From NCBI GenBank assembly GCA_964402425.1, contig CAYOCD010000006.1, forward strand, positions 1 to 56,417: 56,417 nt of DNA, in the 5' to 3' direction. The notes beneath the pieces were generated by a model. That model did no database searches. It saw only the letters and a program-made list of their open reading frames with translations, and had not been told where the DNA came from. Of the stretch, positions 3,001 to 48,344 are shown piece by piece (the stretch's first letter is position 1; every line of letters begins with the position of its first letter). Source of the DNA: an uncultured Gammaproteobacteria bacterium (GTDB lineage: Bacteria > Patescibacteriota > Patescibacteriia > UBA9934 > GWF2-40-263). Position numbers and translations under genes: made by a program.

Positions 3001-6000
3001 TCAGACCATGATGCGCATTGTGCTTGATCTCCCTGAGAGCCGGATTGTGTGCACAAATTTACAGAATCACAAATCTGAATGTATTTGTTTGAACCCGCAT
3101 CCCATGTAGTGCGAGAACTATTACACGCAAGCCACGCCGCACACGTACGATCACGATTTACTTTCAAGACGGTGTTGGAATCGTCTTGCAAAGACAAGGA
3201 TGGATCAACTTCACGACAAGTTCCCTGAATTCCTTTTTGTAATTTTGAATCAAGAACAGGACAGTCAGAATTAAACAAGCAAGACCGTTCGTTCCAATAA
3301 ATCGAATTTGTTGGTTTCATTGCAGAAGGTGTAAGTAATACATCTCCCTTGAGTGACAATTTGTAATAACAACGACGTGCACACAAATTAACCGTCAAAT
3401 CATTTGCGGGGTGCGGCACACCCTGAATATTCTGATCTGCTTCATTCAATTTCTTTGCCGTTTCTGGCGAGATCGCAAACGATCCCCCACCCTGCGTACA
3501 GCTAATTGGATCTACCAAACTATTTTCCGGTTTGTTAAGTAACAAGTCTGCGTGCATAGAAAGCACATAGCTTGCACTTGAGTTGTACTTGCGTTGTGAA
3601 ATGGTGGTGTTGTCAAACAAGGCACACCCTGCTTTTTGTCCAACTTTTCCTTCACATTTTTGTGTAAGGGTCACGGAATTTTCAAGGAGCTTATCATTGT
3701 TGATGATGTAATAAGATTTCCCCTTTCCGTGATTCTCTGGACTTGTGTCTGTGGCATCAATGAGTTCCGTACAACGATTTGCACTTGTCTCACACGCACC
3801 AATCCAACCATCATAAGCAGCATCACCATTTTTCCAAATTTGTGATTCATCCCCCGAGATCAAGTAAGCACTATCTGTATTTGGATCAAATTTATTGTTT
3901 GCATTCTTATCCTCCCAGTAACACGGCTCAGACTTTCCAGAACGGAACCAACCATTAAACGATTTGCTTCCGATTGATACAGAGGTTTTGTATTCACACG
4001 TCTTATCAAACGGATTCTTAAAGTAGAAGTTTCCGTCTTTTGCGGAGGAGAACTCATCACAGAACAATGATTGATTCTCACACAAAATATTTTTGTAATC
4101 GTCTGGTGTATCAAGAACGTATCTTGATTCAAATTTTGTCACCGTCTTTAAATCTTGCGCAAATGTTGGAACACCAACCTCGCGGCATCCTTTAAACGCT
4201 GCGTTGCATTGTGCGCTTCCATTATCCACAAGGAATATGGATTGATCTTGTGGAGTCACAACCGTTTCTGGACCGTACACAATCGCGAATTTTGTTCCGG
4301 TGTCGTTTGGAAGAGGATCTGCGAACACTTGTTTTGCAGAGAACACACAGTAATTTTGTCCAGCGCTGATGGTGCAGTACGTCACTCCATTTACAACACA
4401 TGGCTTATTTGTTGTTGATGGCACGCCTTTTGGCAGTGTTCCACTACCAACGTTCACACAACGTGCATTTGCCACTTGTGCATAAGCGGATTCTGAATTG
4501 TATGTGTTGTAAAACGCAGAACAACCGATCGCTTTTTCGGAACAAACGCGTGTAAATTGATAATAACTTTCCTCTTTTCCTTTTCTATCCGTATACGCTT
4601 TACATCCCAAATAATACTGCGGAGAAACAGCTCCGTTTGGAGACTGATCACAAACAGCCGGAGTCACCCACGAATCTTTAATGCGTGTAATATTTTCCGC
4701 GGTCTGTGTAAGGGTGATGTTATCGACAAAGAATTCTTTTTTGTCTTTTGTTATAAAGAATAATTTTGCGTCTTTGTCGAACGTTGCAAAACTGTTTGTA
4801 TCCATTGGACCCACGTCATACACACTCCATGTGTTTGTGAGATCCATATTTTCCACAAAGAAATGTTTGGTTCCATTTGTATCAACGAACCCTGCAGACA
4901 ATTGTCCTGTTCCTTTTGCCCAGAATTGCATGGTGTAGATCTTTCCTTTTACCAAATTTGTTGACAATGCCGCAGGAATAGTTTGAATTCCAGCATTATC
5001 ACTCGATGCAATTACACGCAAAGAATGTCCACCTGAAGAAACAGACTCGTTACTTGGTTGTGCGATTGCAGAAGCGGTTGTCCCAAATGAACCGATAGTT
5101 CCGCCTTCAAAGACTTCATTCAAAATCGTGGTTGCGTTGCGTCCTGCTCCACCTGTATATTCACGACATCCGTTTTCTGCCGCAGAACAAACTTTTGATT
5201 CTTTTTGCAATCCAAAGTATCGGCAGAATCCTTGTGTTGTCCAGAATCCACCAGACGCAGAACAATCAGCCAATGTAGATGTATTTTTTCTGTACGCAAC
5301 ACAGGCAGAATCAACCGTCACAGTTTTGGAGAAGAGACGATAGTGAATATCTCCCGCGTTATCAAAGAATTCGCGACAATCTGGATTTGTAAAAATGTCT
5401 GTGTGTGCATCACAAGATGCGTCGACCGCAGGAGGGTTGATTTCTACACACTTTACAGAACTCTCACTTTCAAGACTTGGTTTGGTACATGGTGCTGCAT
5501 TGACATCCGATTGCAACAATTGCCAGGTTTTCAATTGAAAACCTGAATTATCAGATCCTTCCCATGTGAAATACGTTGCAGATATTTTGTTTGGAGAACC
5601 ATCCGCCATTTGAGGTGTCAAACAAGCGCGCAAGTTCGTGTAATACTCTTGCGATTCCCCGCCGCTTGTTCCGAGTTTTGTGAATCCATCACATCCAATC
5701 GCTTTTGCAGAACAAACCCCCGCTTTATCTGCAATAAAGTGTACAGGGAATTTTGCAGATTCGTATTTGGTTCCTTCTTGTCTGTACGAATCATAACCTA
5801 CACAGGTATTCGGACAGGCATCGAGCGCGGAAGCAATTGCAGAAACGGAAGGGCCGGATTCTTTTGGTGCGTATAAATTACATCCAATATCAAGCGCGGA
5901 ACAAACCGGCGCATAATTAGCACATTCTGCCGGATCCGATTCAAGCCCCTTACAACCAAGATAGCTAGGCGCAACTTTTATGAAAGATTTTGTAGGTGAT

Positions 6001-8648
6001 GCTGTGTTGTAGCCATCCTGAAAGGAAGATGCAGCTTCACCCGTTTCTAATTGAATACCGTCGTACTGTACTTTTGGTGCACTTGAATTCAAATCATATA
6101 AACCAACCTCCACTTGCGCAGCTGTTGCCGGCAATGTGAACGTACAAGTGAATCGCTTCCATTCATTTGCTGTTGAAAGTGTTTTTTCGATCTTGTAATG
6201 ATTGCCTCCGACAGGAAGACAATCTCCCCCAAATGAAAGCCCACTAAACGAGATATTTACTCCGGTTACTGTTTCTGGGTACAGAGCTACATCAATCTTT
6301 TGATTTGCATCCGTTGCTTTTGCGTAAAGACTAAACGTATAAAAACTTCCGGAACTTGCTTGAACCGTTTGATAATAATACCCATTATTTGTTTTTGCAC
6401 TCTTAGCGCCATCAACCGTATCGCCATCAACTGTAAATGATGTTGCGTTTACGTTTGTATTACGCCATCCGTCTGGAGTGCCATTTTTATCTTCATCCTT
6501 TTCAAAACTTCCATTTTGAACAAGGTTAAGTGTGAGTCCGCTATTTTTTACGTTCAACTCCGTACATCCAGATTGAGCAGCGTCACATTGTTTTACGCTA
6601 TGTGTTGTATATAAACGATCTTGATAAGAATAGCTCGGAGCATTCGATCCGTTGTAACGGAGCGTATCTGATGTTGCAACCACGTCATACGTCGGTGCGC
6701 CTGTAAACCACTGAAATACTCCTGCGGAGTCTGCCACTTTTTGTGTTTTATTCCAAAGACAACCCGCATTTTGCTTTGTACAATTTGCGTTGTCCACCGT
6801 GTTCAACAAATAGGATGCCGTTTTTCCGCTTTTTGTGTTTGAGAATGTTAAACAGGTCGCATACTGTGCAGGGCATTCATCGCCTTTTACGCGCCAAATA
6901 TTTTTTTCTTGAACACAATACCCAAATCCTTCGACACACTTTCCAGAGCTATCTTCCCCAATACATGTTGGGGCGTCTGCACAAACACTCTGACGTCCAG
7001 TCGCCTGTGCACTCACACGAATTTCTCCGTTTACAGATGCTCTACATTGCGATTCCGGAGCTTTCAACACCCAGTTTGGGTCAATAAGGTGACACCACGG
7101 ATGACTCGCATCAAGTTGTCCTTGTGCATTACAGTCATTAAATCCAGCAACAATCTCTTTGAGAGATTTAGGGTTGTTCAATGAGTTTTTCTCTGCAGCT
7201 AATTCCCAACCGATAGAGATAATGCGAGCTTTGCGCAACTTCACCAAGTTTCCATAACAAAAACCATAGGTATAACAAAGACGATCTTGGTTTGCAGATT
7301 GATCTTTTGGAGAAATAAGTGGCCAATCTCCGTTTAAGACTTTTTGATCAATCGCCTCTTGCACGGTAAGAGCCCCAGTACTTCCTCCACGACTAATTGC
7401 TGACACAACACTCACGTCAATAACACAAGAATTGAGTCCGCGATTCCCCGTTCCGTCTGGTGGACACTGAGCAAATTCTCCCAAAAGATCAAATTGAGGA
7501 TTTGCAACCGGTGTTGCGGTAAAAATTCCTCCAAGATCTGCTTTGGTTGCGTCTTTATTATTTCCACCCACCAATTCTGTATTAAATGGATCTGCATTCT
7601 CTGGCTGCGGAGAAAACAATCCCTTATAAACACGATTAAACAACTGTGATGTAAGGGTATTTGTAAATGTTGAAACAGACATGTTCAAAAGTCCGTACCA
7701 AACATCTGGGTTTGCAAGGATATCCCCCGGTTTAATTTTATTTTCATCTCCTTTTGCGGCTTTCAATTGATCATCAAACTGCTTTGCCACAATAGCAGCA
7801 GGTGTTTTTGTTTGCCCTGTAATTAAATCTTTTACGTTTGTAAATCCCCCAATTGAAATAGATCCGATTTGCTCTGCAACCCCCAACTCTGCTTTCTTTT
7901 GTGCCGCCTCATTTGTGAGTTGCAAAAACCCAATGGAAGCACCCAATTCATTATTTCCAGGCTTTAACCCTTCCGCAAGTTTATTAAATAAAAATGTATC
8001 ACGCGCATCTTTATCATTACTGAGCAGGGCGGATGCATCTGAAACAACCTGACCCCACTGAGTACTGATAGAATTGAAATCACACTTTGGTTGTTGAATC
8101 GTATAATTTTGTTTAATACTCAACTGAAGATTCAAACGAATCACTGGATTTGGAGGAACACACAAATCCAAACCAAAGGACTCTTTAGTAATATCACTCA
8201 AATTTCCGAATGCTTCTCCCGCAATATCAACAAGAATTCCCTGTCTGGTTCCGTCTGGGTTCTTTTGATAAAACATGGAACTCTCCCCCGGACCTCCGTT
8301 TGCAATGTATACTGCCGCTTCATAGGCAATACGATTACTAGCGAAAGAAACAAAATCAATGAGCGCTTTCACGGCGACCATTTTAAGAGATGGTGTAATG
8401 ATTTTGTCCCAAAGCGTTTTATTTGCTTCCGCTACAGCTTCTGGTGGACAGGTACTTGGAACTGCACCACTTTTTAAACAAGCTGCTCTTGCTAAATTTG
8501 CCGCAAGTTCTGTCCCGGCACTTGGATCCGCAGCCAAAACAGGTGTTGGTGCTGACAACATGAGTCCACTTGAAATGACTCCGATCAAAAAAACAAAAAC
8601 GAGCCCCCTACTAATCCATTGTCTTTTTTTCTTGAAAGAATTCATCAT
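1..8648 (-). CDS. Giant Cys-rich secreted/surface protein (>2,882 aa; 3' end cut by the window edge)
   Basis: I read the reverse complement by hand. ATG-ATG lies at 8648/8645, and the N-terminus MMNSFKKKRQWISRGLVFVFLIGVISSGLMLSAPTPVLA/ADPS is a signal peptide or anchor. The frame (codon first bases at coordinates = 2 mod 3) shows no stop down to base 1. It is absent from the ORF track, presumably because no stop lies inside the window. All 7 minus-strand ORFs listed in 1-8650 sit in one other frame. Confidence 0.9.
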   Translation of the reverse strand, partial: MMNSFKKKRQWISRGLVFVFLIGVISSGLMLSAPTPVLAADPSAGTELAANLARAACLKSGAVPSTCPPEAVAEANKTLWDKIITPSLKMVAVKALIDFVSFASNRIAYEAAVYIANGGPGESSMFYQKNPDGTRQGILVDIAGEAFGNLSDITKESFGLDLCVPPNPVIRLNLQLSIKQNYTIQQPKCDFNSISTQWGQVVSDASALLSNDKDARDTFLFNKLAEGLKPGNNELGASIGFLQLTNEAAQKKAELGVAEQIGSISIGGFTNVKDLITGQTKTPAAIVAKQFDDQLKAAKGDENKIKPGDILANPDVWYGLLNMSVSTFTNTLTSQLFNRVYKGLFSPQPENADPFNTELVGGNNKDATKADLGGIFTATPVANPQFDLLGEFAQCPPDGTGNRGLNSCVIDVSVVSAISRGGSTGALTVQEAIDQKVLNGDWPLISPKDQSANQDRLCYTYGFCYGNLVKLRKARIISIGWELAAEKNSLNNPKSLKEIVAGFNDCNAQGQLDASHPWCHLIDPNWVLKAPESQCRASVNGEIRVSAQATGRQSVCADAPTCIGEDSSGKCVEGFGYCVQEKNIWRVKGDECPAQYATCLTFSNTKSGKTASYLLNTVDNANCTKQNAGCLWNKTQKVADSAGVFQWFTGAPTYDVVATSDTLRYNGSNAPSYSYQDRLYTTHSVKQCDAAQSGCTELNVKNSGLTLNLVQNGSFEKDEDKNGTPDGWRNTNVNATSFTVDGDTVDGAKSAKTNNGYYYQTVQASSGSFYTFSLYAKATDANQKIDVALYPETVTGVNISFSGLSFGGDCLPVGGNHYKIEKTLSTANEWKRFTCTFTLPATAAQVEVGLYDLNSSAPKVQYDGIQLETGEAASSFQDGYNTASPTKSFIKVAPSYLGCKGLESDPAECANYAPVCSALDIGCNLYAPKESGPSVSAIASALDACPNTCVGYDSYRQEGTKYESAKFPVHFIADKAGVCSAKAIGCDGFTKLGTSGGESQEYYTNLRACLTPQMADGSPNKISATYFTWEGSDNSGFQLKTWQLLQSDVNAAPCTKPSLESESSVKCVEINPPAVDASCDAHTDIFTNPDCREFFDNAGDIHYRLFSKTVTVDSACVAYRKNTSTLADCSASGGFWTTQGFCRYFGLQKESKVCSAAENGCREYTGGAGRNATTILNEVFEGGTIGSFGTTASAIAQPSNESVSSGGHSLRVIASSDNAGIQTIPAALSTNLVKGKIYTMQFWAKGTGQLSAGFVDTNGTKHFFVENMDLTNTWSVYDVGPMDTNSFATFDKDAKLFFITKDKKEFFVDNITLTQTAENITRIKDSWVTPAVCDQSPNGAVSPQYYLGCKAYTDRKGKEESYYQFTRVCSEKAIGCSAFYNTYNSESAYAQVANARCVNVGSGTLPKGVPSTTNKPCVVNGVTYCTISAGQNYCVFSAKQVFADPLPNDTGTKFAIVYGPETVVTPQDQSIFLVDNGSAQCNAAFKGCREVGVPTFAQDLKTVTKFESRYVLDTPDDYKNILCENQSLFCDEFSSAKDGNFYFKNPFDKTCEYKTSVSIGSKSFNGWFRSGKSEPCYWEDKNANNKFDPNTDSAYLISGDESQIWKNGDAAYDGWIGACETSANRCTELIDATDTSPENHGKGKSYYIINNDKLLENSVTLTQKCEGKVGQKAGCALFDNTTISQRKYNSSASYVLSMHADLLLNKPENSLVDPISCTQGGGSFAISPETAKKLNEADQNIQGVPHPANDLTVNLCARRCYYKLSLKGDVLLTPSAMKPTNSIYWNERSCLFNSDCPVLDSKLQKGIQGTCREVDPSLSLQDDSNTVLKVNRDRTCAAWLACNSSRTTWDAGSNKYIQICDSVNLCTQSGSQGDQAQCASWSERNPVVMTEQYYSSRDVSWAGTDYSGYQIPHQLPVERFNQFNLNPKKWCEKNTAKSCETNLGCLQTEGDCVDAPSDYRLVNNAGPCSGADASACTVGFCKNTKTACSSNKNCGTDDTCVFGYCQQVSDVKCFVDNDCDTQAAAKICDPVQGVCVDRLLNKPDLAWACGANGENPCATGQKCVTATTTAAGTCYQNRCLTDIRDIDGNGFAEPLQKDKSDNIQSCRGYPEFDSPFPQKVVAMWKVFPKPKEIVASSVGIMKTSGSMSKIVNGKSIIELSSSISTPAQFVSGYDASKVCTPICDKEGNNCVANDECLCSYTKAVYGKGVESRYYPTNLSGLENQKVPSGICTGGLKEGKVCNTDEECSVGAIYAKKADGTDDMSKPPTTQAVTGLCQQLSTTNTMFGWQGYCLEKDTSIQLNGSTEAKDQACLTWLPVDQLSGATDLYGKDMSAGYQIASNTYYCAQPGVAWDLPTSSGFACAETGGGCSDASGQSYFKDTDKAASNIYCPENYFAVAEPCGDNATKGSSDVPLCSNDDEQGFTYDNYDNDYPYFCVPKGSKKTTDTDGKAGEECLTPKMVKDKKIKTFDSLTSMFTNQNSVDIYYFTKSGDWDTARKYYQDCSVKGVFDVSTHLGKEPNQISSSGDVGGSDSSGYRYLKFSFNEFAACKNVVQVAQGGVEGNLNAAWTDRVWQASKFKTTTGFHDDFAGYSVVAEPKIFGQVKDEIDQIGVPKSILMCGNVMAKTDGVCAEPDVLSSPTEARAFSKVSLVVQKADGIGSYCDPNTAAQDCNPFYKKGICSFQSTQCVGKWKCVVESGKTSGKCNTGPRAGGTCASDIDCNATCGDDAKTKLCIKTGGECKGTGSCTAGPNKDCTNDEDCLTKKCVKNPEASKNKISLDDGFVCIDKNQNFGALSISSDFNQSDAKKRLSLIFAQVYELLDYKDENKKYTGSGVKQGDLWFWDDRSTANWSIKAGSLNSTPNPPIITSLGNCIGSSCAEKRP

Positions 8649-8654
8649 ACAATT

Positions 8655-29319: not shown

Positions 29320-32313
29320 GTGAACGCACGCCTTTTCGTTTTTATCCTGTCCCTCTTCTCAATCGGATGCGAAGAAATTTCTCCTTTCATTTCGGATATT
29401 CATTGGAGTATTCGTAAAGATGTTGATCGTGACGGTATTCCATATCCAGAAGATTGTGATGATCGCAATCCAAAAATTGGCATTCGTGTCTGGTATCAGG
29501 ATATTGATCAAGATGGATTTGGAGCGGGTGGAAAAATCATTGCCTGTTCCATGCCGACGGGTGCAACTATCACGAACACGGATTGTGATGATACAACCGC
29601 GTCCGCCTATCCAACCGCCACGGAACTTTGTGACACCATCGACAACAACTGTAATGGTAGTACCGACGAACTATTTAAAACCCTCGGCACAAGCTGTGGG
29701 ATTGGCGCCTGTTTGGGTGGTACACAAATTTGCACAGCAGATAAAACGAGCACAATCTGTTCAACACAGAACAATGTGAGTTCGGAATCCTGTGACACTA
29801 TTGATAACGACTGCGATGGTAAAACAGATGAAACATTCACAGATCTCGGTTCAGCCTGTGGTGTAGGTGCGTGTAGTGGTGGCAAAAAAATTTGCGCGAC
29901 CAATCTGTCAGGCACCATCTGTTCCACAGACAGCCAATCGAGTTTAGAAATCTGCGACACCATCGATAATGACTGTAATGGTGAAACGGACGAAAACTTG
30001 TTGAAGAAATTCTTCAAGGATCTTGATAAAGATACATATGGCAACGCAAACGCGAATCGTTTTGGTTGTGAAGCGTTACCAAATGAAGTCACTGTCTCTG
30101 GTGATTGCAACGATCAACTCGCAAACGTCTATGCAGGAGCTGTAGAATTTTGTGACACCATCGATAATGACTGCAATGGGCAAACAGATGAATCATCGGC
30201 CGTTGACGCAAAAACACTCTACGCCGATGTGGATCAAGATGGGTACGGAAATATCTTGGTCACAAAAAAATCGTGCCAAATGGAAAGCGGTTGGTCCCTC
30301 ACAAGTAACGATTGCAGCGATCTCAACAAATCCATTCACCCGAATGCGACAGAGACATGCAATACGATCGACGAAAACTGCAACGGAAAGACAGATGAAG
30401 GTGTGTGGCTTACGTTTTTTCCGGATACAGACAAAGACGGATTCGGCGCTCTTTCTGGAGACGTAACGGGATGCACCGCTTCTGCGGGATACGTTTCAAA
30501 CAACACGGACTGCAATGACACAAACAAGAACGCATATCCAAATGCGATCGAACAGTGCGATAACAAGATCGACGAAAATTGCGACGGGATCACAGACAAT
30601 GCGTCAAACGCAAGTCTCTGGTATCTCGATGCCGACAAGGATAGCTACGGCACAAGTGCTGTTTCGATCTACGCCTGCACACCCCCTGTCGATTATGTCG
30701 CAAACAAAAGTGATTGCAATGATTCAAACAATACCATTCACCCAAACGCGATCGAACTATGCAAAGACAGCATCGACAACGATTGCAACGGTATCACGGA
30801 CACAGACACGCAAGTTGTGACCTGGTACCTCGATTTCGATCAAGACGAATTCGGGGATGCTGCGCAAACGAAACTCGATTGTGCACAACCCGCGGGATAC
30901 GTTAAAAACAACAATGACTGCAATGACAAAGATCTGTTTATCCATCCAAACGCAAAAGAAATTTGCAATAACGGCGTGGATGACAATTGCGACAAAGCTG
31001 TCAACCAATGTGTTCTAACAGGAGTTATCAAAATTGCTGACGTAAACACCATTCAACTCACAGGACCGGAAAACCAAAACTTTGCTTCCGCTGTAGCAAC
31101 ATGTGATCTAAACAACGATGGATTAGACGATCTCATTGTTGGCTCACCGGCCACAAACGCAAATCAAGGAAAAATTTCCATCTACCTGTCCCCTCTCAAA
31201 AACAACATGGCTGTAAGCCATGAGATTCTCGGACTCGCAAGCGGTTTATTTGGAACAAGTCTTGCGTGCACGAAATCAAAAAATGGCCCCGTCCTCGCTG
31301 TTGGTTCCCCAGGGGACCAAACAGGTGGTAACAGTGCCGGAGCTGTCTATCTCTTTAAAACGTCTCTGTTGAACGTTGTGTCTGCAACAAAAGCTGATGC
31401 AAAATGGATAGGCACGACACAAAACATGGAAGTTGGTATTTCGTGTATAACCATCCCCGATCAAAACAACGATCAGATCGACGATTTCTTTGTCGGAGCG
31501 GATGGATACAACGGTGGAACTGGAGCATTTGCAGGAGCAGGCTTTGTCCTGAGCTCAGCGTCGCTCGGAACAGAGATGATCCAAAATGCATTTACGAGTG
31601 TCATCAACAAAACAAAAGACGAACTCGCTGGAACAGCTCTTGCCGCCGGATTTCTCAACCCTGACGGAAAACTCGATCTTATTCTCGGAGCCACTTCAAG
31701 CGATGTTGCCGCCACAGATGCGGGCATCGTCTACACTCACCTTGGACCTTTTGCAGGATCGGTTTACACAACGGACAGCAAACCCCTTTATGGGATTTCC
31801 CCATTCGATCATTTTGGACACAGTCTTTGGAGCGGCTTCGATCTGACAGGAGACACACTCGACGATCTGCTGATTGGCTCTCCAGGAAACGGCAACGCGC
31901 AAAACACAGGCTTTATCCAAGTCGCCAGATGGAATACGCAAGGAACAAATCTGCCATTTCTTGTCACGACACTTGAATCCGCCATCGGTGGAGATCGACT
32001 CGGATATTCCGTTTCAAGCGGACACGTGAACACGGATTCCACAGGTGACATTCTGGTCGGATCCCCAGGAGCGGATGACGCCGGATTCAATACAGGAAGT
32101 GTTTTCCTTCAGTACGGACCCATTCTCAAAGATGGTGATATTCGCAAGACAGCGCATCTCAGAATTGATGGAGATACAACAAGTGGACAACTAGGTTGGC
32201 TCGTAAAAATCGTCCCAGATCTAAATGGAGATGATATTCCCGACCTTATCCTGGTTGCCAAATCAACCAAACCTCTTCGAAAACTTTACGTTTTCCCTGG
32301 GGCCGGATTCTAA
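29320..32313 (+). CDS. Lipoprotein with about 8-9 MopE-type Cys-rich putative metal-binding repeats followed by an FG-GAP/integrin-alpha-like beta-propeller
   Basis: GTG start and lipobox LFSIGC. The repeat CxDxNxxIxPxAxExCDxIDNDCNGxTDE recurs from about 29440 to 31010. FG-GAP motifs (DLNNDGLDDLIVGSP, DLTGDTLDDLLIGSPG, DLNGDDIPDLILVA) follow from about 31010 to 32313. Confidence 0.85.
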   Translation: MNARLFVFILSLFSIGCEEISPFISDIHWSIRKDVDRDGIPYPEDCDDRNPKIGIRVWYQDIDQDGFGAGGKIIACSMPTGATITNTDCDDTTASAYPTATELCDTIDNNCNGSTDELFKTLGTSCGIGACLGGTQICTADKTSTICSTQNNVSSESCDTIDNDCDGKTDETFTDLGSACGVGACSGGKKICATNLSGTICSTDSQSSLEICDTIDNDCNGETDENLLKKFFKDLDKDTYGNANANRFGCEALPNEVTVSGDCNDQLANVYAGAVEFCDTIDNDCNGQTDESSAVDAKTLYADVDQDGYGNILVTKKSCQMESGWSLTSNDCSDLNKSIHPNATETCNTIDENCNGKTDEGVWLTFFPDTDKDGFGALSGDVTGCTASAGYVSNNTDCNDTNKNAYPNAIEQCDNKIDENCDGITDNASNASLWYLDADKDSYGTSAVSIYACTPPVDYVANKSDCNDSNNTIHPNAIELCKDSIDNDCNGITDTDTQVVTWYLDFDQDEFGDAAQTKLDCAQPAGYVKNNNDCNDKDLFIHPNAKEICNNGVDDNCDKAVNQCVLTGVIKIADVNTIQLTGPENQNFASAVATCDLNNDGLDDLIVGSPATNANQGKISIYLSPLKNNMAVSHEILGLASGLFGTSLACTKSKNGPVLAVGSPGDQTGGNSAGAVYLFKTSLLNVVSATKADAKWIGTTQNMEVGISCITIPDQNNDQIDDFFVGADGYNGGTGAFAGAGFVLSSASLGTEMIQNAFTSVINKTKDELAGTALAAGFLNPDGKLDLILGATSSDVAATDAGIVYTHLGPFAGSVYTTDSKPLYGISPFDHFGHSLWSGFDLTGDTLDDLLIGSPGNGNAQNTGFIQVARWNTQGTNLPFLVTTLESAIGGDRLGYSVSSGHVNTDSTGDILVGSPGADDAGFNTGSVFLQYGPILKDGDIRKTAHLRIDGDTTSGQLGWLVKIVPDLNGDDIPDLILVAKSTKPLRKLYVFPGAGF

Positions 32314-38366: not shown

Positions 38367-38443
38367 TGGTGGGCGTGCTTGGACTTGAACCAAGGACCAC
38401 AGAGGTATAAGCTCTGCGCTCTAACCAGCTGAGCTACACGCCC
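38367..38443 (-). tRNA. tRNA-Ile (anticodon UAU), CCA encoded
   Basis: The reverse complement folds as GGGCGTG-ta-GCTC..GAGC-g-CAGAG-cuUAUac-CTCTG-tggtc-CTTGG-ttcaagt-CCAAG-CACGCCC-a-cca. Confidence 0.85.
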
Positions 38444-40756: not shown

Positions 40757-40792
40757 AAAAAATAGTCCCGCCATGGCGGGACTATTTTTTTA
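40755..40792. terminator. Bidirectional terminator
   Basis: Palindrome ATAGTCCCGCCATGGCGGGACTAT flanked by A8 and T7 runs. Confidence 0.8.
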
Positions 40793-42337
40793 TATTGTTT
40801 TGAGTGATTGATGTGATTCAATATTGATTCCATTCTCATAACGCCACAGAAATGTAGGCAGTACTTCTGTAATTCCTTTATTCCATTGAGAACCGTAAAT
40901 TGTATTTGCAACGGTTTCAGAAACGATCCAGTGCAACGCACCATCATTTCCAACCATATATACACGCGAATCTCCAATAGCTTTTACGCGTTCACCAGGA
41001 ATCAATCCACCTTCAAATACTTTATCCGTTGGTCGAAATGAAAACGAAACGGAAAGAGTTGCTTGATAAATCGCTCCATCTTTTCCTTTCCAGATCACAT
41101 GAGAATCATCAGTTAAAACAGGATTGGTTCCATATCCGAGTTTTACCTGTTTTTGATTGGTTGTATTTTCATACCAAATGTTTCCTTGTACATCTGTTCC
41201 TACACGAACATCATTTTGCACATCCGACACAAGAAACGTTGTTTGAGTGAGAGTGTCTGAAGCAAAATCATATTTCCACGACCCTTTTGTTGTTGCAAAA
41301 TAAACCGCATCTTTTTCAAGATGAACAGAACCATCTTTCACAACAGGAAGTCCTCCAACAATTCCCTCAAGACCAACTGCGTGGAGCGTATGATTTACAT
41401 CCGTCCACACCATACGATCCCCAGCAATCTGTACATTTTGATTCACATCTTTATTCCAGCTCAACAAAGCATCTCCAGCGGATTGAGGTTCTGTATTGCT
41501 TTTAGGAGTATACGTGTACAAACGATAGTTTTGGAAAAACACAACCGTTCCATTTGAGAGAAAATGTGGAAACAAAATGTCTGCCTGTGGATCTGTCCAT
41601 GTATTTGGGATCGCGAACATGCCTTGTGAAGCCGAATCAATAAGCCAAAGTTGCTTATTTCCTCCTGAAAATTGAAGCTTCACAAGCAACTGATCATTAT
41701 AGGCATCCATCACTTGTTGCCACGGAGCTTTCAACACAGACGCAATGTTTCGCTCTTCATAAGATCCATCTTTTGATTTTGCCACAATGGAGCCTTGAAC
41801 TTTTTTTGTTTCATTATTTGATTGCAAAAGAGATGTGTACAAACGATCTCCTGAAGTTGAAAACGAAACAAAACTTAATTCGTCTGGCTTACGCGCAAGT
41901 GATGTGTATGGATGTGTTTCACCCGTGTTTGGATCCACGAACCAAACATCAATCCAATTATTCTTATTGGTTGATTTTGTAAAAAACACAAATTTTCCTT
42001 TCTGCGCCATAGCAAAAGACGGATTCAAAAATTGCTGATCAATACCTTGTAAAATCCGTGTTTTCCCATCTTTTAAAATCGAAAGATCGATTTTGTCACA
42101 CAACCCCAGATTGGAACATTGTATTGACGGGCTTGAAACAAACGCCATTCCATGGCGTTTCATAGGATCACTTACGGTTGCATTAAATGCCAAACGTTCT
42201 ACACGATGAGTAGATTCATCCCACGCACGATCTGCAAGCAGCGGCTTCCAAGAGGCTGTATCCGCAAAAACACGAGGGAGAATAGGTGAAATACCCGCTG
42301 CAATCACCAAAGAAGCGATCAATATTTTTTTAAGCAT
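40790..42337 (-). CDS. Hypothetical secreted protein (possibly beta-propeller-like)
   Basis: Signal peptide MLKKILIASLVIAAGISPILPRVFA/D on a 515-aa protein. I recognise no motif. Confidence 0.6.
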   Translation of the reverse strand: MLKKILIASLVIAAGISPILPRVFADTASWKPLLADRAWDESTHRVERLAFNATVSDPMKRHGMAFVSSPSIQCSNLGLCDKIDLSILKDGKTRILQGIDQQFLNPSFAMAQKGKFVFFTKSTNKNNWIDVWFVDPNTGETHPYTSLARKPDELSFVSFSTSGDRLYTSLLQSNNETKKVQGSIVAKSKDGSYEERNIASVLKAPWQQVMDAYNDQLLVKLQFSGGNKQLWLIDSASQGMFAIPNTWTDPQADILFPHFLSNGTVVFFQNYRLYTYTPKSNTEPQSAGDALLSWNKDVNQNVQIAGDRMVWTDVNHTLHAVGLEGIVGGLPVVKDGSVHLEKDAVYFATTKGSWKYDFASDTLTQTTFLVSDVQNDVRVGTDVQGNIWYENTTNQKQVKLGYGTNPVLTDDSHVIWKGKDGAIYQATLSVSFSFRPTDKVFEGGLIPGERVKAIGDSRVYMVGNDGALHWIVSETVANTIYGSQWNKGITEVLPTFLWRYENGINIESHQSLKTI

Positions 42338-45379: not shown

Positions 45380-45416
45380 AAAACAAAAAGGAGCAAGCCT
45401 CAGGGGCTGCTCCTTT
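45380..45416 (-). terminator. Terminator after the pilin-like gene
   Basis: Stem AAGGAGCA/TGCTCCTT followed by a T-rich tail on the minus strand. Confidence 0.55.
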
Positions 45417-45423
45417 TCCGCTT

Positions 45424-47382
45424 TTAATCACACGAATCCTGACCAACAGTATCTCCATCAAATTTACAGGCTGCTTCTCCTTCAATTGCGGCAGCTCCGC
45501 ACGGATCTTCTTTACAAATTTTTTCAAGAGTAATCTCGCCAGAACTAAAATCATCAAGTGTACCATTATCCTCACCACTTTCTACCAACATATCATCATA
45601 TGCATCACATGCATTCGACTTAAAGGTGACATTCTTAACTTTTTTACAATCAATCGTTAACAAAGCACATGTTGGACCGTCCGCATCTGAATCCGTTGTG
45701 AACGCGCATGTACTTCCAGAAATTTTATCTTTTAATTGCCCACATACAGCAGAACTTGGAAGCAATGGCACATCTTCCCCAAGTAATTCATTATCCTTAA
45801 AAATTTCTTTACAACTTGTACAAACCGAGTGCTTACCATAAGTTACACATCCATAACCAGGCTTTTTGGGACACGTCACTGGATCACAAGTCTTTGGTTT
45901 AAGTGGTCCAGAATCAATACAATTACTCATTATTTTTGCTGTATCATCATATTTACAATCCGTTTCAACCAAACCCCCTTTTAATGCTGAACATGGATTT
46001 TCTGCACAAACAGACTGAATCGTTATTTTTCCTGAAACCATGCCCTCTTGTATTTTTTCAAGGTTTGTTGTGGTGAATCCTGTCTGAAATTGAGGTGTTG
46101 TATCGTAATCTTTACACTCCTTAATTTTTTTACAATCAATCGTTACGGCACCACATGCACCCACAACAATACGATCTATGTCTTCCGCTTGTGCAGTTCC
46201 GGAACTCGACAAAGCAGCCGTTAAAGCCGTTAATCCCCAACCAGCAGGTGTTGTTGTTAAAAACGCATTTTTTGCTACTGTCCATGTAGGACTTACAAAC
46301 AATGCATCCGTATCATGCGTATAAGAACAATAATTAATCGTGGACAAATCTTTACCATCTACTTTTGTAGTAGTTGTATCAAGACTTAGTTGGCTGCACA
46401 AATCTTCAGAAGGCTTGATATTTGGAATACCAGGAATAACAGCTGTACACGCCAAACACTTAGCATCCGCTCCTGTTCCGAGACACCCCTCTGCAGCATT
46501 TGGACATTTTTTATAATCACAAGATGTTGCCCCCGCAACAGATCCACCATCTTTTTTTGACATGATTTTTCCAGACGTTCCGCATTTCTTTTGATCTGCT
46601 GGAATATCACTTCCGTCAATAGCTTTAATAATGTATTCCGCTTCCATTGTTTCACAGGATGTTGCGGTCACTAAATCAACACGCTTCACCATTGGAAATT
46701 TTGGTACCTTTAATTTAATCAAATAAGGATTAATGGTTGCAGCAATCAGATTAACACAAAGAAGCAAAACAAATCCTGTCACACCATTTTTTATCCGCTC
46801 CTTTCCTTTTGAAACACCATCTTTTGAACTCGCACCAAGTGTATATTGAAGTCCCCCAACCATGACCATCACAATCGCAAGCACCATTCCTCCGTTGATA
46901 ATAAAGTTGAACAAAGATTCAATGTAATCTCCAATATTTCCCGTGATCGTGAGTGGACTTGATGGATTCGTTGGGTTTGGAATAGCAACATTTAATTTTA
47001 CTTTTTCTGCTTTCGCCGGATCCGGGAAGCAGTAACTTTGCCCAGGAATACAATCTACCGCTTGTTTTGTATCCAAAACACCGTTTTGTTTTGTACAAAT
47101 ATCTTTTGTAAAACAATAGGCACTTCTTTCAGGAAGCTGATCAACGGTGAATGCACATGCTGCCACACGTTCATCTACTTTTTTACACGCAGCTGTACAC
47201 GCATCTTGTCCCAAGGCAGACGGAAGCTTAATTGCTCCTCCTTTTGAAGTACACCAACAACCGGCCGTACATACTTTTTCCGCCGCAGCAGTTGGTGCTG
47301 GCTCTACCGCGAGTGCAGGTGTTGGCGCAACGTGTGCAAAAAATGATACGAGAAAGAACAAGAAAAATTTCAAACGATTCAT
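45424..47382 (-). CDS. Cys-rich surface protein built around a VirB2/T4SS-pilin-like two-TM hairpin
   Basis: Signal peptide ...HVAPTPALA/VEP is followed by a Cys-rich domain of about 120 aa. The hairpin is IESLFNFIINGGMVLAIVMVMVGGLQYTLGASSKDGVSKGKERIKNGVTGFVLLLCVNLIAATI. A 430-aa Cys-rich C-terminal region follows, containing a duplicated IDCKK module. Confidence 0.8.
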   Translation of the reverse strand: MNRLKFFLFFLVSFFAHVAPTPALAVEPAPTAAAEKVCTAGCWCTSKGGAIKLPSALGQDACTAACKKVDERVAACAFTVDQLPERSAYCFTKDICTKQNGVLDTKQAVDCIPGQSYCFPDPAKAEKVKLNVAIPNPTNPSSPLTITGNIGDYIESLFNFIINGGMVLAIVMVMVGGLQYTLGASSKDGVSKGKERIKNGVTGFVLLLCVNLIAATINPYLIKLKVPKFPMVKRVDLVTATSCETMEAEYIIKAIDGSDIPADQKKCGTSGKIMSKKDGGSVAGATSCDYKKCPNAAEGCLGTGADAKCLACTAVIPGIPNIKPSEDLCSQLSLDTTTTKVDGKDLSTINYCSYTHDTDALFVSPTWTVAKNAFLTTTPAGWGLTALTAALSSSGTAQAEDIDRIVVGACGAVTIDCKKIKECKDYDTTPQFQTGFTTTNLEKIQEGMVSGKITIQSVCAENPCSALKGGLVETDCKYDDTAKIMSNCIDSGPLKPKTCDPVTCPKKPGYGCVTYGKHSVCTSCKEIFKDNELLGEDVPLLPSSAVCGQLKDKISGSTCAFTTDSDADGPTCALLTIDCKKVKNVTFKSNACDAYDDMLVESGEDNGTLDDFSSGEITLEKICKEDPCGAAAIEGEAACKFDGDTVGQDSCD

Positions 47383-47394
47383 ACATCTCGGATA

Positions 47395-48129
47395 TTATTT
47401 TTGTTGTGCACCAACAGACACAATCACGTTCTCAAGAATATTTTGCGGAATAGATCCGGGAATACGATTCCCATTAATAAAAAACGTTGGGGTTCCACGA
47501 ACTCCCGCCGCAAGACCATCTTGATAATCTTGTTGAACTTGTTTTGTGTACGTTTGTGCCGAAAAACACGCTCGAAAACGATCGACATTCAAATTCAACT
47601 GGGTGGCAAACTGCTCAAAAGAAGCCTCTTCAAGTGAATCTTGATTTTGATAGATCTTGTCATGATATTCCCAAAACCTTCCTTGTTCATGAGCGCACGC
47701 AGCTGCCTCTGACGCTGTTTGTGCAAGCGGATGTAACTCAATCAATGGAAAATCTCTATAAATATACTGAAATTGATTTGGATATTTTGTAGCAAGAGAA
47801 CGCATAACAAAACTAGATGTCCGAGAAAACGGACAACCAAAATCTGCAAACTCAACAATGGTAATAGGCGCATTCACATTTCCAAGTGTTGGTCGATTCT
47901 TTAGAGCAACATCAAATACCTGATCCTTTACCGGTTCGGATGCAAGTTTTGTTATCGTTGAAACCGTTTGCGAAAAATTCAAATCAGAAAGATTCAAACT
48001 TCCGTTTCTGATTTGATTTGTAAAAAAAACAATCCGCCAAACAAATATACCAAGCAAAAAAAGAACAACGAGGGTCACCATCGTTCCAATCCAGCCACGC
48101 TTCTTGTGAATCGAAATTTCTTCTTGCAT
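47395..48129 (-). CDS. Membrane-anchored DsbA-like thioredoxin-fold protein with a CPFS (monothiol) active site
   Basis: Contains ITIVEFADFGCPFSR ... GVRGTPTFFINGNRIPG (cis-Pro loop) and an N-terminal TM segment. The track start is 48159; the alternative MQEEISIHKK at 48129 is used here. Confidence 0.8.
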   Translation of the reverse strand: MQEEISIHKKRGWIGTMVTLVVLFLLGIFVWRIVFFTNQIRNGSLNLSDLNFSQTVSTITKLASEPVKDQVFDVALKNRPTLGNVNAPITIVEFADFGCPFSRTSSFVMRSLATKYPNQFQYIYRDFPLIELHPLAQTASEAAACAHEQGRFWEYHDKIYQNQDSLEEASFEQFATQLNLNVDRFRACFSAQTYTKQVQQDYQDGLAAGVRGTPTFFINGNRIPGSIPQNILENVIVSVGAQQK

Positions 48130-48170
48130 AAAGACACATGTATACAGAAAGTATATCATAAAATCATCCT

Positions 48171-48344
48171 ATGCGAGATAAAAATAACACACAGACACAA
48201 GAAGAGGCTCAAGAAAATGAACGAGTAAAACGTCGTCGTGTGAAACGCCACCCTAAAATGAAAATGTCCGGAAAAGGAATGAAACGTTTTGTCTCACCCA
48301 CCAACAAGCAAGCAAACCCAAAAAAACCGCCCATGAACGGTTGA
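48171..48344 (+). CDS. Small highly basic protein (57 aa, below the track threshold)
   Basis: Sequence MRDKNNTQTQEEAQENERVKRRRVKRHPKMKMSGKGMKRFVSPTNKQANPKKPPMNG. Coding status is uncertain. Confidence 0.3.
   Translation: MRDKNNTQTQEEAQENERVKRRRVKRHPKMKMSGKGMKRFVSPTNKQANPKKPPMNG

Follow-up and report, generated by a model that had tools for sequence, protein, structure and literature searches.

The window analysed here, a stretch of DNA of 56,417 nucleotides, derives from a bacterium of the candidate phylum Uhrbacteria and carries on its minus strand two genes that form an operon (Table 1). The upstream gene encodes a DsbA-like thioredoxin-fold protein and the downstream gene a 652-aa protein in which a pilin-type hairpin is flanked by Cys-rich domains. 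Both reading frames had been recognized in a preliminary description, and the 12-nt gap that it placed between them is exact; its start for the DsbA-like gene, at 48159, is on the other hand likely wrong. In alignment, all DsbA-like orthologues begin at the equivalent of Met11, and the 244-aa protein P0025 is identical to the DsbA-like protein from Met11 onwards, for which reasons the gene probably begins at 48129.

The intrinsic terminator, GGAGCAGCC-CCUGA-GGCUUGCUCC followed by UUUUUGUUUU, lies 10–40 nt past the stop codon of the 652-aa gene, has a folding energy of −22.5 kcal/mol (z = −3.6 against shuffles) and was also detected on the plus strand by the terminator scan. The remaining terminator-like matches on the minus strand are short stems of 6–10 bp within coding sequence, so that the single terminator reported after the second gene stands. 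Beyond it, uvrA starts at 45340. A 515-aa secreted protein encoded after uvrA (40790..42337) is syntenic in all loci; it was considered as a third component and rejected, since it has no Pfam match and only 2 Cys, and uvrA intervenes. Other Cys-rich secreted proteins are also encoded in the window, for example one with 8 MopE repeats at 29320..32313.

Table 1. Features of the two-gene unit and their positions in the window
Feature	Position	Strand	Basis or remark
DsbA-like thioredoxin-fold gene	47395..48129	-	244 aa from the conserved start; ORF open to 48159 (254 aa)
N-terminal TM anchor, aa 21-50 of the 254-aa ORF	48010..48099	-	Kyte-Doolittle hydropathy > 1.6; single segment
Active site Cys-Pro-Phe-Ser, codons TGT CCG TTT TCT	47824..47835	-	Direct reading; Ser replaces the resolving Cys
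Intergenic spacer, 12 nt	47383..47394	-	TAA stop to ATG start, read from the sequence
Pilin-hairpin protein gene, 652 aa, with Cys-rich ectodomains	45424..47382	-	ORF and PF18895; stop codon included
Signal peptide, aa 1-25 (MNRLK, hydrophobic core, ALA/VEP)	47308..47382	-	Hydropathy and aligned homologue signal peptides; predicted cleavage between ALA and VEP
N-terminal ectodomain, aa 26-148, 10 Cys	46939..47307	-	Cys count; pLDDT ~80-87
VirB2-like helical hairpin, aa 149-222	46717..46938	-	PF18895; two hydrophobic segments; two long AF2 helices
Linker and Cys-rich repeat 1, aa 223-495, 16 Cys	45898..46716	-	Internal duplication; AF2 pLDDT ~90-97 outside the insert
Hydrophobic Gly/Ala-rich insert in repeat 1, aa ~358-408	46159..46311	-	Flanked by C352 and C410
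Cys-rich repeat 2, aa 496-652, 14 Cys	45427..45897	-	Fastest-diverging part
Intrinsic terminator	45380..45416	-	Imperfect 10-bp G+C-rich stem and U-tract; closes the two-gene unit

Architecture of the two proteins

The DsbA-like protein matches Pfam Thioredoxin_4 (PF13462; E 5.7e-24, 85.6 bits) and DSBA (PF01323; E 1.2e-19, 71.3 bits), as well as 16 DsbA-like chains among the PDB sequences at E <= 3e-4, its PDB relatives being 3gyk, the MdbA-type DsbA 4pwo/4pwp and BdbD 3eu3; the NCBIfam model for the Rcas_1661 thioredoxin-like (seleno)lipoprotein stays below threshold (105 bits vs 190). The membrane anchor is preceded by the basic sequence HKKRGW, and a positive N-terminus would thus stay inside and leave the catalytic domain outside. 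By profile, the protein has the DsbA arrangement of a thioredoxin fold into which a helical domain is inserted, together with the conserved cis-Pro loop opposite the active site (T223-P224-T225, invariant in the alignment and presumed to be cis), and a second Cys pair, C155/C198, is invariant in the orthologues. The CxxC redox-active disulfide of DsbA, on the other hand, is absent.

All 120 of the best homologues carry CxxS at the active site, which rules out a single-base sequencing error (TCT vs TGT), and orthologues 54–85% identical to the protein retain CPFS. Across the 22 orthologous genome loci with a DsbA-like gene, the site reads CxxS at 15, CxxT at 4 and CxxC at 2, a distribution which indicates that the resolving Cys was lost in evolution from a CxxC ancestor. 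The preliminary description had spoken of a dedicated disulfide enzyme, which cannot here mean a canonical DsbA oxidase: CPFS permits no intramolecular disulfide, and an enzyme with a single active-site Cys is thus not expected to act as an oxidase alone. 'Isomerase/chaperone' fits the predicted chemistry better than 'disulfide-forming enzyme'. The site could also work together with a small thiol in reduction, or the protein could be a redox-inactive chaperone. As an oxidizing source, no DsbB, VKOR or CxxC DsbA was found among the scanned ORFs of the window.

In the 652-aa protein, hydrophobic segments lie at residues 6–26, 154–185 and 197–224. Residues 149–215 match the T4SS_pilin family PF18895 (E 3.2e-8, 34 bits) above its gathering score of 26.6, and the AF2 model has helices at 147–185 and 187–216 with the basic loop SSKDGVSKGKERIKNG between them (5 K/R vs 2 D/E). 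The hairpin had been placed at nt 46717–46935, which correspond to aa 150–222, with the peptide then quoted at aa 164–217. Its assignment as a TrbC/VirB2-type pilin is borne out by the T4SS_pilin profile but not by TrbC (PF04956), which gave no match in the Pfam profile search; the NCBIfam pilin-like model Mbov_0395 reached 12.7 bits, below its threshold of 40. Searched against all PDB sequences, a profile of the hairpin subfamily (A4) gave chance matches only and no VirB2 or TraA pilin, the chance matches being designed repeat proteins and coronavirus spike TM segments. The protein matched none of the PHROGs families, so a phage origin was rejected, and its 24 homologues all belong to Patescibacteria/Uhrbacteria. 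It thus shares with T4SS pilins the signal peptide, the two hydrophobic helices and the short basic loop, but it is not a small, hairpin-only protein: the canonical small members in outgroups have 104–201 aa. The 'decorated pilin' first described is real in its ectodomains, and these are the rule in the Uhrbacteria hairpin subfamily and not special to this gene.

The 41 Cys are distributed as 10 in residues 26–148, C209 in TM2 and 30 in residues 223–652, so each ectodomain has an even count, and the Cys are the invariant columns of the alignment. Those of the N-terminal ectodomain, arranged as a CxxxCxC...C...C module followed by YCF...C...C...YCFPDP, are invariant or nearly so among homologues. 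Taken with the signal peptide, the hydropathy and the basic loop (by the positive-inside rule), the even Cys counts suggest that both Cys-rich domains face outside, in line with the original proposal.

The C-terminal domain is a tandem duplication, missed by BLASTP self-comparison and found by Smith–Waterman alignment (local score 164.5, z = 12.7 against shuffles); by the same procedure the N- and C-domains have no detectable relation (z = 1.3). With the near-identical P0001 set aside, orthologues share 28–47% identity in repeat 2, the same proteins being 42–88% identical in the N-domain and 46–86% in the hairpin. Repeat 2 lacks the insert of repeat 1, as do about half of the homologues. In many homologues the hydropathy of the insert becomes TM-like over 19–39 residues; here it is only moderately hydrophobic, with no 19-residue window above 1.6. 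Nine Cys precede it in repeat 1 and seven follow it, and because both counts are odd a disulfide would span the insert. The possibility that it forms a third TM segment and flips the distal domain into the cytoplasm was rejected on its sub-threshold hydropathy, the conserved Cys that flank it and these odd counts. In the models (pLDDT 75 for the full-length protein, 89 for the C-domain) the insert is the part of lowest confidence (pLDDT 63–74), an exposed helical excursion from a confident domain. Searches of the full-length model against the PDB and BFVD, and of the C-domain model against the PDB, returned nothing at E <= 1e-3; what they listed was generic helical hairpins and noise, and these fold searches thus linked the protein to no known adhesin, lectin or toxin.

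Conservation of the pair and its surroundings

At 22 of 27 orthologous Uhrbacteria loci the DsbA-like gene lies directly upstream, adjacent and co-directional, and the spacers in related loci are mostly 3–31 nt (extremes −22 to +174 nt); the pairing singled out in the preliminary description is thus conserved. In the other 5 loci the Cys-rich protein is kept and the adjacent DsbA-like gene is missing, and the enzyme is therefore dispensable in cis. Furthermore, the whole SBP / SecG / DsbA-like / pilin / UvrA block is syntenic across Uhrbacteria, so the two genes could be neighbours in part because their order was inherited. A second module, found at 26 loci in a different chromosomal context, consists of a paralogous CxxC DsbA upstream of 1–3 proteins of the hairpin subfamily, whose hairpins are fused to VanY, M23 or NlpC/P60 peptidoglycan hydrolases. 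Both modules are present in the genome RIFOXYB2_FULL_45_11 (L010 and L044) and in a LacPavin MAG (L012 and L036), and in these genomes a CxxC oxidase is thus available beside the CxxS enzyme. CxxS/T enzymes go with clients of 23–47 Cys and CxxC enzymes with clients of 6–29, and the small Cys-free pilins at L065 and L067–L069 have no DsbA neighbour. Tandem arrays of paralogous pilin-like genes occur at L005, L017 and L021. A pair that is conserved, tightly spaced and recurring in a second context argues that a dedicated foldase–client relationship, as predicted for the two genes, is well founded. In the literature on PF18895, on Patescibacteria pilins and on CPR together with DsbA, we found no description of this pairing.

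In the window, 32 large ORFs were scanned and none matched a T4SS or type IV pilus family, in agreement with the preliminary description; VirB4, VirB6, VirB3 and VirD4 were thus not found there. Nor did VirB4, VirB6 or VirD4 occur within 6–10 kb at about 69 related loci, the search covering 6–10 kb at L001–L009 and proceeding via clustered large ORFs at L010–L064; as a positive control, a VirB4-like ATPase was detected at the outgroup locus L065, where it lies 1.4 kb away from a small pilin. Within the window and these surroundings the hairpin protein is thus not encoded with T4SS machinery, and the polymerized surface filament previously put forward is not supported by these results. Sister genes join the same hairpin to peptidoglycan hydrolases, which suggests that it is more than a filament subunit and acts as a carrier or anchor.

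A proposed foldase and its client

We consider it probable, from the sequences, that the operon encodes a dedicated disulfide isomerase/chaperone together with a hairpin-anchored, disulfide-knotted surface client. The proposal builds on the gene order, the domain identities, the CxxS site and its conservation, the conserved Cys and the conserved pairing, all of which were observed directly. The DsbA-like protein would be a type II membrane-anchored protein with one nucleophilic Cys (Cys-Pro-Phe-Ser) beside the cis-Pro loop, most likely a monothiol disulfide isomerase or holdase. By the isomerase chemistry that we infer, this Cys would attack wrong disulfides and form transient mixed disulfides with the client, which the client's own thiols would resolve, as with CXXS members of the PDI family; oxidizing equivalents would come from elsewhere, for example from a separate CxxC DsbA paralogue such as those in related genomes, or from the environment. 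In the predicted topology, the 652-aa protein would be exported by Sec and held in the membrane by its VirB2/T4SS_pilin-type hairpin, with the basic loop inside and the 10-Cys N-domain and duplicated 30-Cys C-domain displayed outside with ~20 predicted disulfides. The distal repeats, being the fastest evolving and bearing a disulfide-stapled hydrophobic loop, would probably be the surface that meets a host cell or a substrate, and an adhesin-like role is presumed for them; any extraction of the hairpin into a T4SS pilus would be a further supposition.

Such extraction is central to an alternative which we judge unlikely, namely that the protein is a polymerizing T4SS pilin, pulled out by a VirB4-type machine encoded elsewhere, to give a filament with a disulfide-stabilized surface or to cap one as a minor or tip pilin. 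The score above the PF18895 gathering threshold is consistent with this, as are weak cross-matches of sister hairpins to TrbC/VirB2 PF04956 (L062, 3.7e-4; L065, 2.8e-3) and the tandem arrays, which resemble pilin arrays of Saccharibacteria that are reported to be essential. Both ends of the pilin point outward in solved conjugative pili, so terminal fusions are geometrically conceivable. However, known VirB2/TraA filaments offer an estimated surface of roughly 700–1400 square angstroms per subunit, on which ~550 ectodomain residues would be hard to fit, no solved pilin was matched in sequence or fold beyond a generic helical hairpin, and the hydrolases on sister hairpins speak for an anchor or carrier. 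The lack of T4SS genes nearby also weighs against polymerization, although a close relative's genome (GCA_001791715.1) is listed as VirB4-positive (Table S1 of PMC12102498), and VirB2-like pilins, near virB4 in 1135 of 1948 Patescibacteria assemblies, lie away from it in ~40% (PMC12102498).

It is rather improbable that the adjacency reflects inherited synteny only, with a CxxS protein that is degenerate or of general purpose (it might act as a chaperone or reductase, for instance, or belong to a thiol-retention system that serves many exported proteins) and without a special tie to its neighbour. Conservation of the block as a whole, the 5 loci without the enzyme and other potential Cys-rich clients in the window, such as the MopE-repeat protein, are in keeping with such a view; it is opposed by the coupling of an independent DsbA paralogue to the same hairpin subfamily elsewhere on the chromosome, by the short spacers and single downstream terminator, and by the way in which the CxxS/T or CxxC state tracks the Cys number of the client. 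We give very little credence to the idea that the ectodomain is a membrane-active effector, whose stapled hydrophobic loop enters a target (host) membrane while the hairpin delivers or anchors it. The exposed ~50-aa insert, TM-like in many homologues, would suit this role, and cell-wall-degrading enzymes on sister hairpins would fit an attack or attachment toolkit. But repeat 2 and about half of the family do without the insert, its hydrophobicity here is moderate, and the fold searches gave no likeness to a known pore former or fusion protein.

The foldase–client proposal can be extended, quite tentatively, to the class ABY1, to which Uhrbacteria belong. Here the VirB2-like hairpin may have become a general carrier that loads extracellular cargo on or next to a T4SS-derived pilus with which these episymbionts engage host cells; each cargo class would have a dedicated DsbA paralogue, and the one for the 40-Cys cargo would have evolved into a monothiol isomerase. 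The cargo would comprise the disulfide-knotted, adhesin-like domain with its hydrophobic finger and no detectable known fold, and the VanY, M23 and NlpC/P60 hydrolases. If true, VirB2 pilins that bear cargo would be known for the first time, and so would a natural CxxS DsbA whose client is defined. Patescibacteria rely on surface machinery for life on host cells, and the locus thus bears on the role of their pilins: hairpin proteins with large ectodomains are candidates for those parts of the apparatus that touch the host and breach cell walls, and extracellular oxidative folding would be genetically hard-wired to them in a minimal-genome lineage.

Comparison with known systems

The VirB2/TrbC T4SS pilins (PF18895; for Patescibacteria, Quinonero-Coronel et al. 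2025, PMC12102498) resemble the 652-aa protein in their signal peptide, two hydrophobic helices and basic loop; the Patescibacteria members share its phylum, form tandem paralogues in some relatives and are often encoded away from virB4. Patescibacteria pilin arrays are known from Southlakia epibionticum and TM7x, and the T4SS and VirB2-like pilin arrays are essential in the one species tested (PMC12857230). VirB2-like pilins, however, have ~100–200 aa, whereas the 652 aa here include ectodomains of 123 and 430 aa with 40 Cys; and unlike the usual members, this family has a DsbA-like gene upstream, no T4SS genes nearby and sister genes that fuse the hairpin to peptidoglycan hydrolases. In these accounts of Patescibacteria pilins we found no mention of such ectodomains, of a DsbA-like neighbour or of hydrolase fusions.

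In F-type conjugation, TrbB (DsbC-like, CxxC) and TraF (a thioredoxin fold without CxxC) serve the T4SS pilus apparatus. Both are soluble periplasmic proteins encoded inside the tra operon, and they act on Cys-rich Tra assembly proteins rather than on the pilin itself. The parallel would lie in thioredoxin-fold proteins, one of them without CxxC, that are dedicated to a T4SS pilus apparatus.

MdbA of C. diphtheriae and Actinomyces (4pwo/4pwp) and BdbD of B. subtilis (3eu3) are significantly similar in sequence (E 2.6e-12 to 7.9e-11 for sequences of this type) and, like the DsbA-like protein, have one N-terminal TM segment and a DsbA fold outside the cytoplasm. Sortase pilins exported by Sec are folded by MdbA, and in both its system and this locus the client is of pilin type in a bacterium without an outer membrane. 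MdbA and BdbD are, on the other hand, CxxC oxidases recycled by VKOR or BdbC, whereas the protein here is CxxS, and the MdbA client is a sortase-linked Ig-fold pilin, as opposed to a VirB2-like hairpin protein.

In chemistry, the nearest likeness is to CXXS members of the PDI family of the Eug1p type, ERp44 being another CXXS member of that family. Here too Ser/Thr replaces the resolving Cys in a thioredoxin fold that carries no oxidizing equivalents, and a CxxC paralogue coexists, as observed in our case in relatives' genomes (L010/L044 and L012/L036). Yeast Eug1p, which cannot carry oxidizing equivalents, depends on a CXXC homologue and lends itself to disulfide shuffling (PMC2195995), and CxxS/CxxT variants of the thioredoxin fold are known, as PMC2757866 mentions in citing Fomenko & Gladyshev. 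The DsbA-like protein, known here from its sequence, differs from the Eug1p type in that it has a bacterial DsbA fold with a helical insertion, is membrane-anchored and is genetically tied to a single family of clients. Natural DsbA-fold proteins with a CxxS site form a large clade with an obvious client and would offer a bacterial counterpart to Eug1p/ERp44-type chemistry, in which mixed-disulfide intermediates should be naturally trappable.

The locus and its surroundings

The window, with 40–46% G+C, is ordinary chromosomal DNA from a member of the Patescibacteria (CPR). It carries genes for GroEL, RF1, NusA, YidC, ArgRS, ValRS, UvrA, SecG, RNase J and TrpRS and five tRNAs, and its homologues carry the name Candidatus Uhrbacteria, which corresponds to GTDB class ABY1. 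The gene for the DsbA-like protein (gene 1) and that for the pilin-hairpin protein with Cys-rich ectodomains (gene 2) are separated by exactly 12 nt, and gene 2 is followed by a terminator hairpin (−22.5 kcal/mol; z = −3.6 against dinucleotide shuffles), with uvrA starting at 45340, 83 nt past gene 2. All the elements of the two-gene unit proposed in the preliminary description were thus recovered. Elsewhere in the region, minus-strand hits resembling terminators are only short stems within coding sequence; together with the short spacer, this makes the two genes look like a single transcription unit. In orthologues of gene 1 the protein starts where Met11 lies here, and databases contain an identical protein of 244 aa; the true start of gene 1 is therefore probably 48129.

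Directly upstream of secG lies a very basic ORF, only 12–42 nt from the divergent start of gene 1, and a gene of 44–57 aa is called at the equivalent place in four related loci (L001, L004, L005 and L008). The promoter of the gene 1/gene 2 operon must overlap this ORF. After uvrA, a secreted protein with a signal peptide, two cysteines and no Pfam match is matched in every syntenic locus by a counterpart of 489–571 aa in the corresponding place. A giant ORF is cut off by the left edge of the window. Its sole Pfam match is a CBM_4_9 carbohydrate-binding domain (aa 1176–1277), and after it comes a 265-aa protein containing a bacterial TSP3 repeat. The product of the giant ORF is probably a giant surface protein, of the kind typical of CPR. 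Finally, AUA decoding in bacteria is usually achieved via a lysidine-modified CAU tRNA, and the tRNA-Ile with anticodon TAT (UAU) may be a sign of a TilS-independent strategy.

Features of the locus and the window, with module B examples from related loci
Feature	Position	Strand	Details
Gene 1 ORF	47395..48159	-	254 aa
Gene 1 active site	47835-47824	-	Cys-Pro-Phe-Ser; codons TGT CCG TTT TCT
Gene 2 ORF	45424..47382	-	652 aa
Repeat 1, gene 2 product	roughly aa 286-488	-	Smith-Waterman
Repeat 2, gene 2 product	roughly aa 497-651	-	Smith-Waterman
C209, gene 2 product	46756..46758		within TM2 (LLLC)
Terminator hairpin	start ~10 nt after gene 2 stop	-	imperfect, G+C-rich, with U-tract; GGAGCAGCC-CCUGA-GGCUUGCUCC-UUUUUGUUUU
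Basic ORF	48171..48344	+	57 aa
Secreted protein	40790..42337	-	515 aa
Giant ORF	3..8654	-	at least 2884 aa
MopE-motif protein	29320..32313	+	997 aa
tRNA-Ile(UAU)	38367..38443	-
Module B examples (L036-L066)	L044:5617-7011, L050:5551-6918, L056:5185-6846

The DsbA-fold protein and its cysteine-rich neighbour

The earlier view of gene 1 as a DsbA-like oxidoreductase holds for the fold (Pfam Thioredoxin_4, 5.7e-24; DSBA, 1.2e-19) but not for the active site, which reads CPFS, from C109 to S112, and lacks CxxC. The protein resembles DsbA-like proteins of solved structure, BdbD and the membrane-anchored MdbA type (4pwo/4pwp) among them. A single hydrophobic anchor (aa 21–50), preceded by HKKRGW, argues for a type II protein whose catalytic domain is extracellular. 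In orthologues, C155/C198, a further cysteine pair, and the cis-Pro loop (T-P-T) do not vary. The active-site Ser is retained among orthologues at 54–85% identity, and CxxS is found in 120 of the 120 best database homologues (48–100% identity), comprising 80 CPYS, 30 CPFS, one each of CGYS, CQYS, CPHS, CEYS and CSYS, and five sites missed by the first regular expression and assigned by eye as CP[YF]S; an error at this site is thus ruled out. At species-representative genome loci, 15 orthologues have CxxS, 4 have CxxT and 2 have CxxC. The last two forms occur in the more divergent members, and on this distribution the resolving cysteine is therefore read as lost inside the clade. A thioredoxin fold with CXXS can neither form the intramolecular disulfide nor carry oxidising equivalents (PMC2195995; also PMC2757866); such a fold can nevertheless shuffle disulfides via mixed-disulfide intermediates, on the precedent of yeast Eug1p, which depends on a CXXC homologue alongside (PMC2195995). 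Elsewhere in the window, the 997-aa protein, which is exported and disulfide-rich with eight Cys-rich Cu-binding_MopE motifs and FG-GAP repeats, could be a further client of the gene 1 enzyme.

In gene 2, a profile search places aa 149–215 in PF18895 T4SS_pilin (E 3.2e-8; 34 bits, gathering score 26.6), bearing out the original assignment of the hairpin to the T4SS pilin family. The AlphaFold2 model has two long antiparallel helices, 147–185 and 187–216. The protein begins with a typical signal peptide, in which MNRLK leads into a hydrophobic core and then ALA|VEP; hydrophobic segments follow at 154–185 and 197–224, connected by the loop SSKDGVSKGKERIKNG with 5 K/R against 2 D/E. Since the signal peptide would be cleaved and the positive loop would lie inside the cell, we infer that both flanking domains face outward, as had been proposed, and the distribution of cysteines, with 10 in the N-terminal and 30 in the C-terminal domain plus one in TM2, agrees with this topology. 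The cysteines are the invariant columns of the family in alignments of 19 and 67 members. At least 90% of the family retain the single TM2 cysteine, C209, which is by count the only unpaired one.

The C-terminal region contains an internal duplication (Smith-Waterman score 164.5; z = 12.7 against shuffles), and homologues occur as one-repeat (about 470–490 aa) and two-repeat (about 650–710 aa) forms. Repeat 1 carries an insert of ~50 residues (aa about 358–408) in which Gly, Ala and hydrophobic residues abound. Repeat 2 and about half of the family lack this insert, and in many homologues it has transmembrane-like hydropathy across 19–39 residues. A third membrane pass was set aside: within the repeat 1 unit nine cysteines precede the insert and seven follow it, and with these odd counts at least one predicted disulfide must bridge it, most simply C352–C410, the pair that corresponds to C559 and C572 in repeat 2. 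We thus read the insert as a disulfide-stapled hydrophobic loop. The C-domain model has a mean pLDDT of 89 (67-sequence alignment); searches of PDB and BFVD at E <= 1e-3 gave no neighbour for it or for the full-length model, and the top fold match of the C-domain has a probability of 0.02. An exhaustive phmmer search of 1.84 billion cluster representatives with the C-domain returned only 77 proteins, the full-length ones practically all consisting of signal peptide, hairpin at ~150–215 and Cys-rich domain, and the C-domain therefore appears restricted to this architecture. Leaving out the near-identical orthologue P0001, orthologues share 42–88% identity in the N-domain, 46–86% in the hairpin and 28–47% in repeat 2; by this comparison, the distal part evolves fastest.

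Conservation of the pair and T4SS context

Every Uhrbacteria contig inspected has the same gene order: SBP/SecG (opposite strand), DsbA-like gene, hairpin protein(s), UvrA and a secreted ~500-aa protein. Spacers between the DsbA-like and hairpin genes are mostly 3–31 nt (extremes −22 to +174 nt), and some genomes have two or three tandem hairpin paralogues. A pattern scan for the hairpin subfamily across 185,579 species genomes gave 60 loci, 27 of them orthologous to the window locus (module A). The pair is well conserved in these relatives: in 22 loci the DsbA-like gene comes immediately before the hairpin gene and in the same direction; the other five have the Cys-rich protein in the equivalent slot without it. 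A further 26 loci (module B) are set elsewhere, flanked by ClpB and RadA/RecG, and have a paralogous DsbA with a genuine CxxC, then one to three proteins with the same hairpin and C-terminal VanY/Peptidase_M15, Peptidase_M23, NlpC/P60 or unknown domains. Both modules occur in RIFOXYB2_FULL_45_11 (loci L010 and L044) and in a Lac Pavin MAG (L012 and L036), so that in such genomes a predicted CxxC oxidase paralogue is on hand beside the CxxS enzyme. Clients have 23–47 cysteines with CxxS/T enzymes and 6–29 with CxxC enzymes; the small, cysteine-poor outgroup pilins (104–201 aa) have no DsbA neighbour. Gene order and sequence comparison across these loci show a conserved DsbA/hairpin pairing that arose twice, with different DsbA paralogues each time.

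Many TPA_asm MAG records titled 'uncultured Gammaproteobacteria bacterium' (L016, L018, L020, L021, L023–L026 and others) carry the CPR-specific block of DsbA-like gene and pilin-hairpin protein, with UvrA wherever the downstream flank was inspected; judged by this block, they look taxonomically mislabelled.

As first noted for the window, VirB4, VirB6, VirD4 and type IV pilus families were not detected among its large ORFs, and none was found around any module A or B locus. One of the small outgroup pilins (locus L065) has a VirB4-like ATPase (P-loop_TraG 9e-27) 1.4 kb away and sits near dnaA, which is the canonical Patescibacteria arrangement (PMC12102498). In the survey of Quinonero-Coronel et al., a close relative carrying the pair, GCA_001791715.1, is VirB4-positive (Table S1), and in only 1135 of 1948 assemblies do VirB2-like pilins lie close to virB4 (PMC12102498). 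A T4SS probably exists in the lineage, and nothing ties gene 2 to it. Searched by sequence, the hairpin-subfamily profile found no solved VirB2 or TraA pilin, and weak cross-matches of sister proteins to TrbC/VirB2 PF04956 are the only connection to classical pilins.

Proposed mechanism and comparison with known systems

The unit encodes a monothiol DsbA-fold protein, predicted to face outward, and a hairpin-anchored protein, predicted to be Sec-exported, whose ~40 conserved cysteines would be extracellular. Our functional statements draw on sequence, conservation and precedent. We consider it reasonably probable that the gene 2 client, which would need about 20 disulfides formed correctly, has in the CxxS protein a disulfide isomerase or holdase dedicated to it, with oxidation coming from elsewhere. 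The mature client would reside in the membrane, or possibly be extracted into a pilus. Its fast-evolving, disulfide-knotted domain, which bears a hydrophobic finger, would be displayed as a contact surface, plausibly one by which an episymbiont attaches to its host. The preliminary description, combining a DsbA-like neighbour with a pilin hairpin, had instead envisaged a disulfide-stabilised surface filament or spike. A homopolymeric 'decorated filament' is less likely than the isomerase/client reading and, in our view, unlikely: the ectodomain is very large per subunit, T4SS genes were not found nearby, and sister genes put enzymes on the same hairpin. Pure synteny, with no functional link between the two genes, is weakened by module B and seems quite improbable; that the hydrophobic loop of gene 2 acts as a membrane-active effector is more doubtful still.

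Relatives are annotated at NCBI merely as 'pilin' and 'DsbA family protein', and the literature consulted on PF18895 and Patescibacteria T4SS pilins makes no mention of cysteine-rich hairpins, DsbA coupling or pilin-hairpin/hydrolase fusions. By profile, the gene 2 hairpin belongs to PF18895 T4SS_pilin, but the protein departs from the family's 'small, T4SS-linked' features. Gene 1, similarly, has the DsbA family fold without the defining CxxC. By analogy, it would work like the CXXS relatives of PDI (Eug1p), and it resembles MdbA/BdbD in its anchoring and in apparently serving a pilin-type client in a monoderm.
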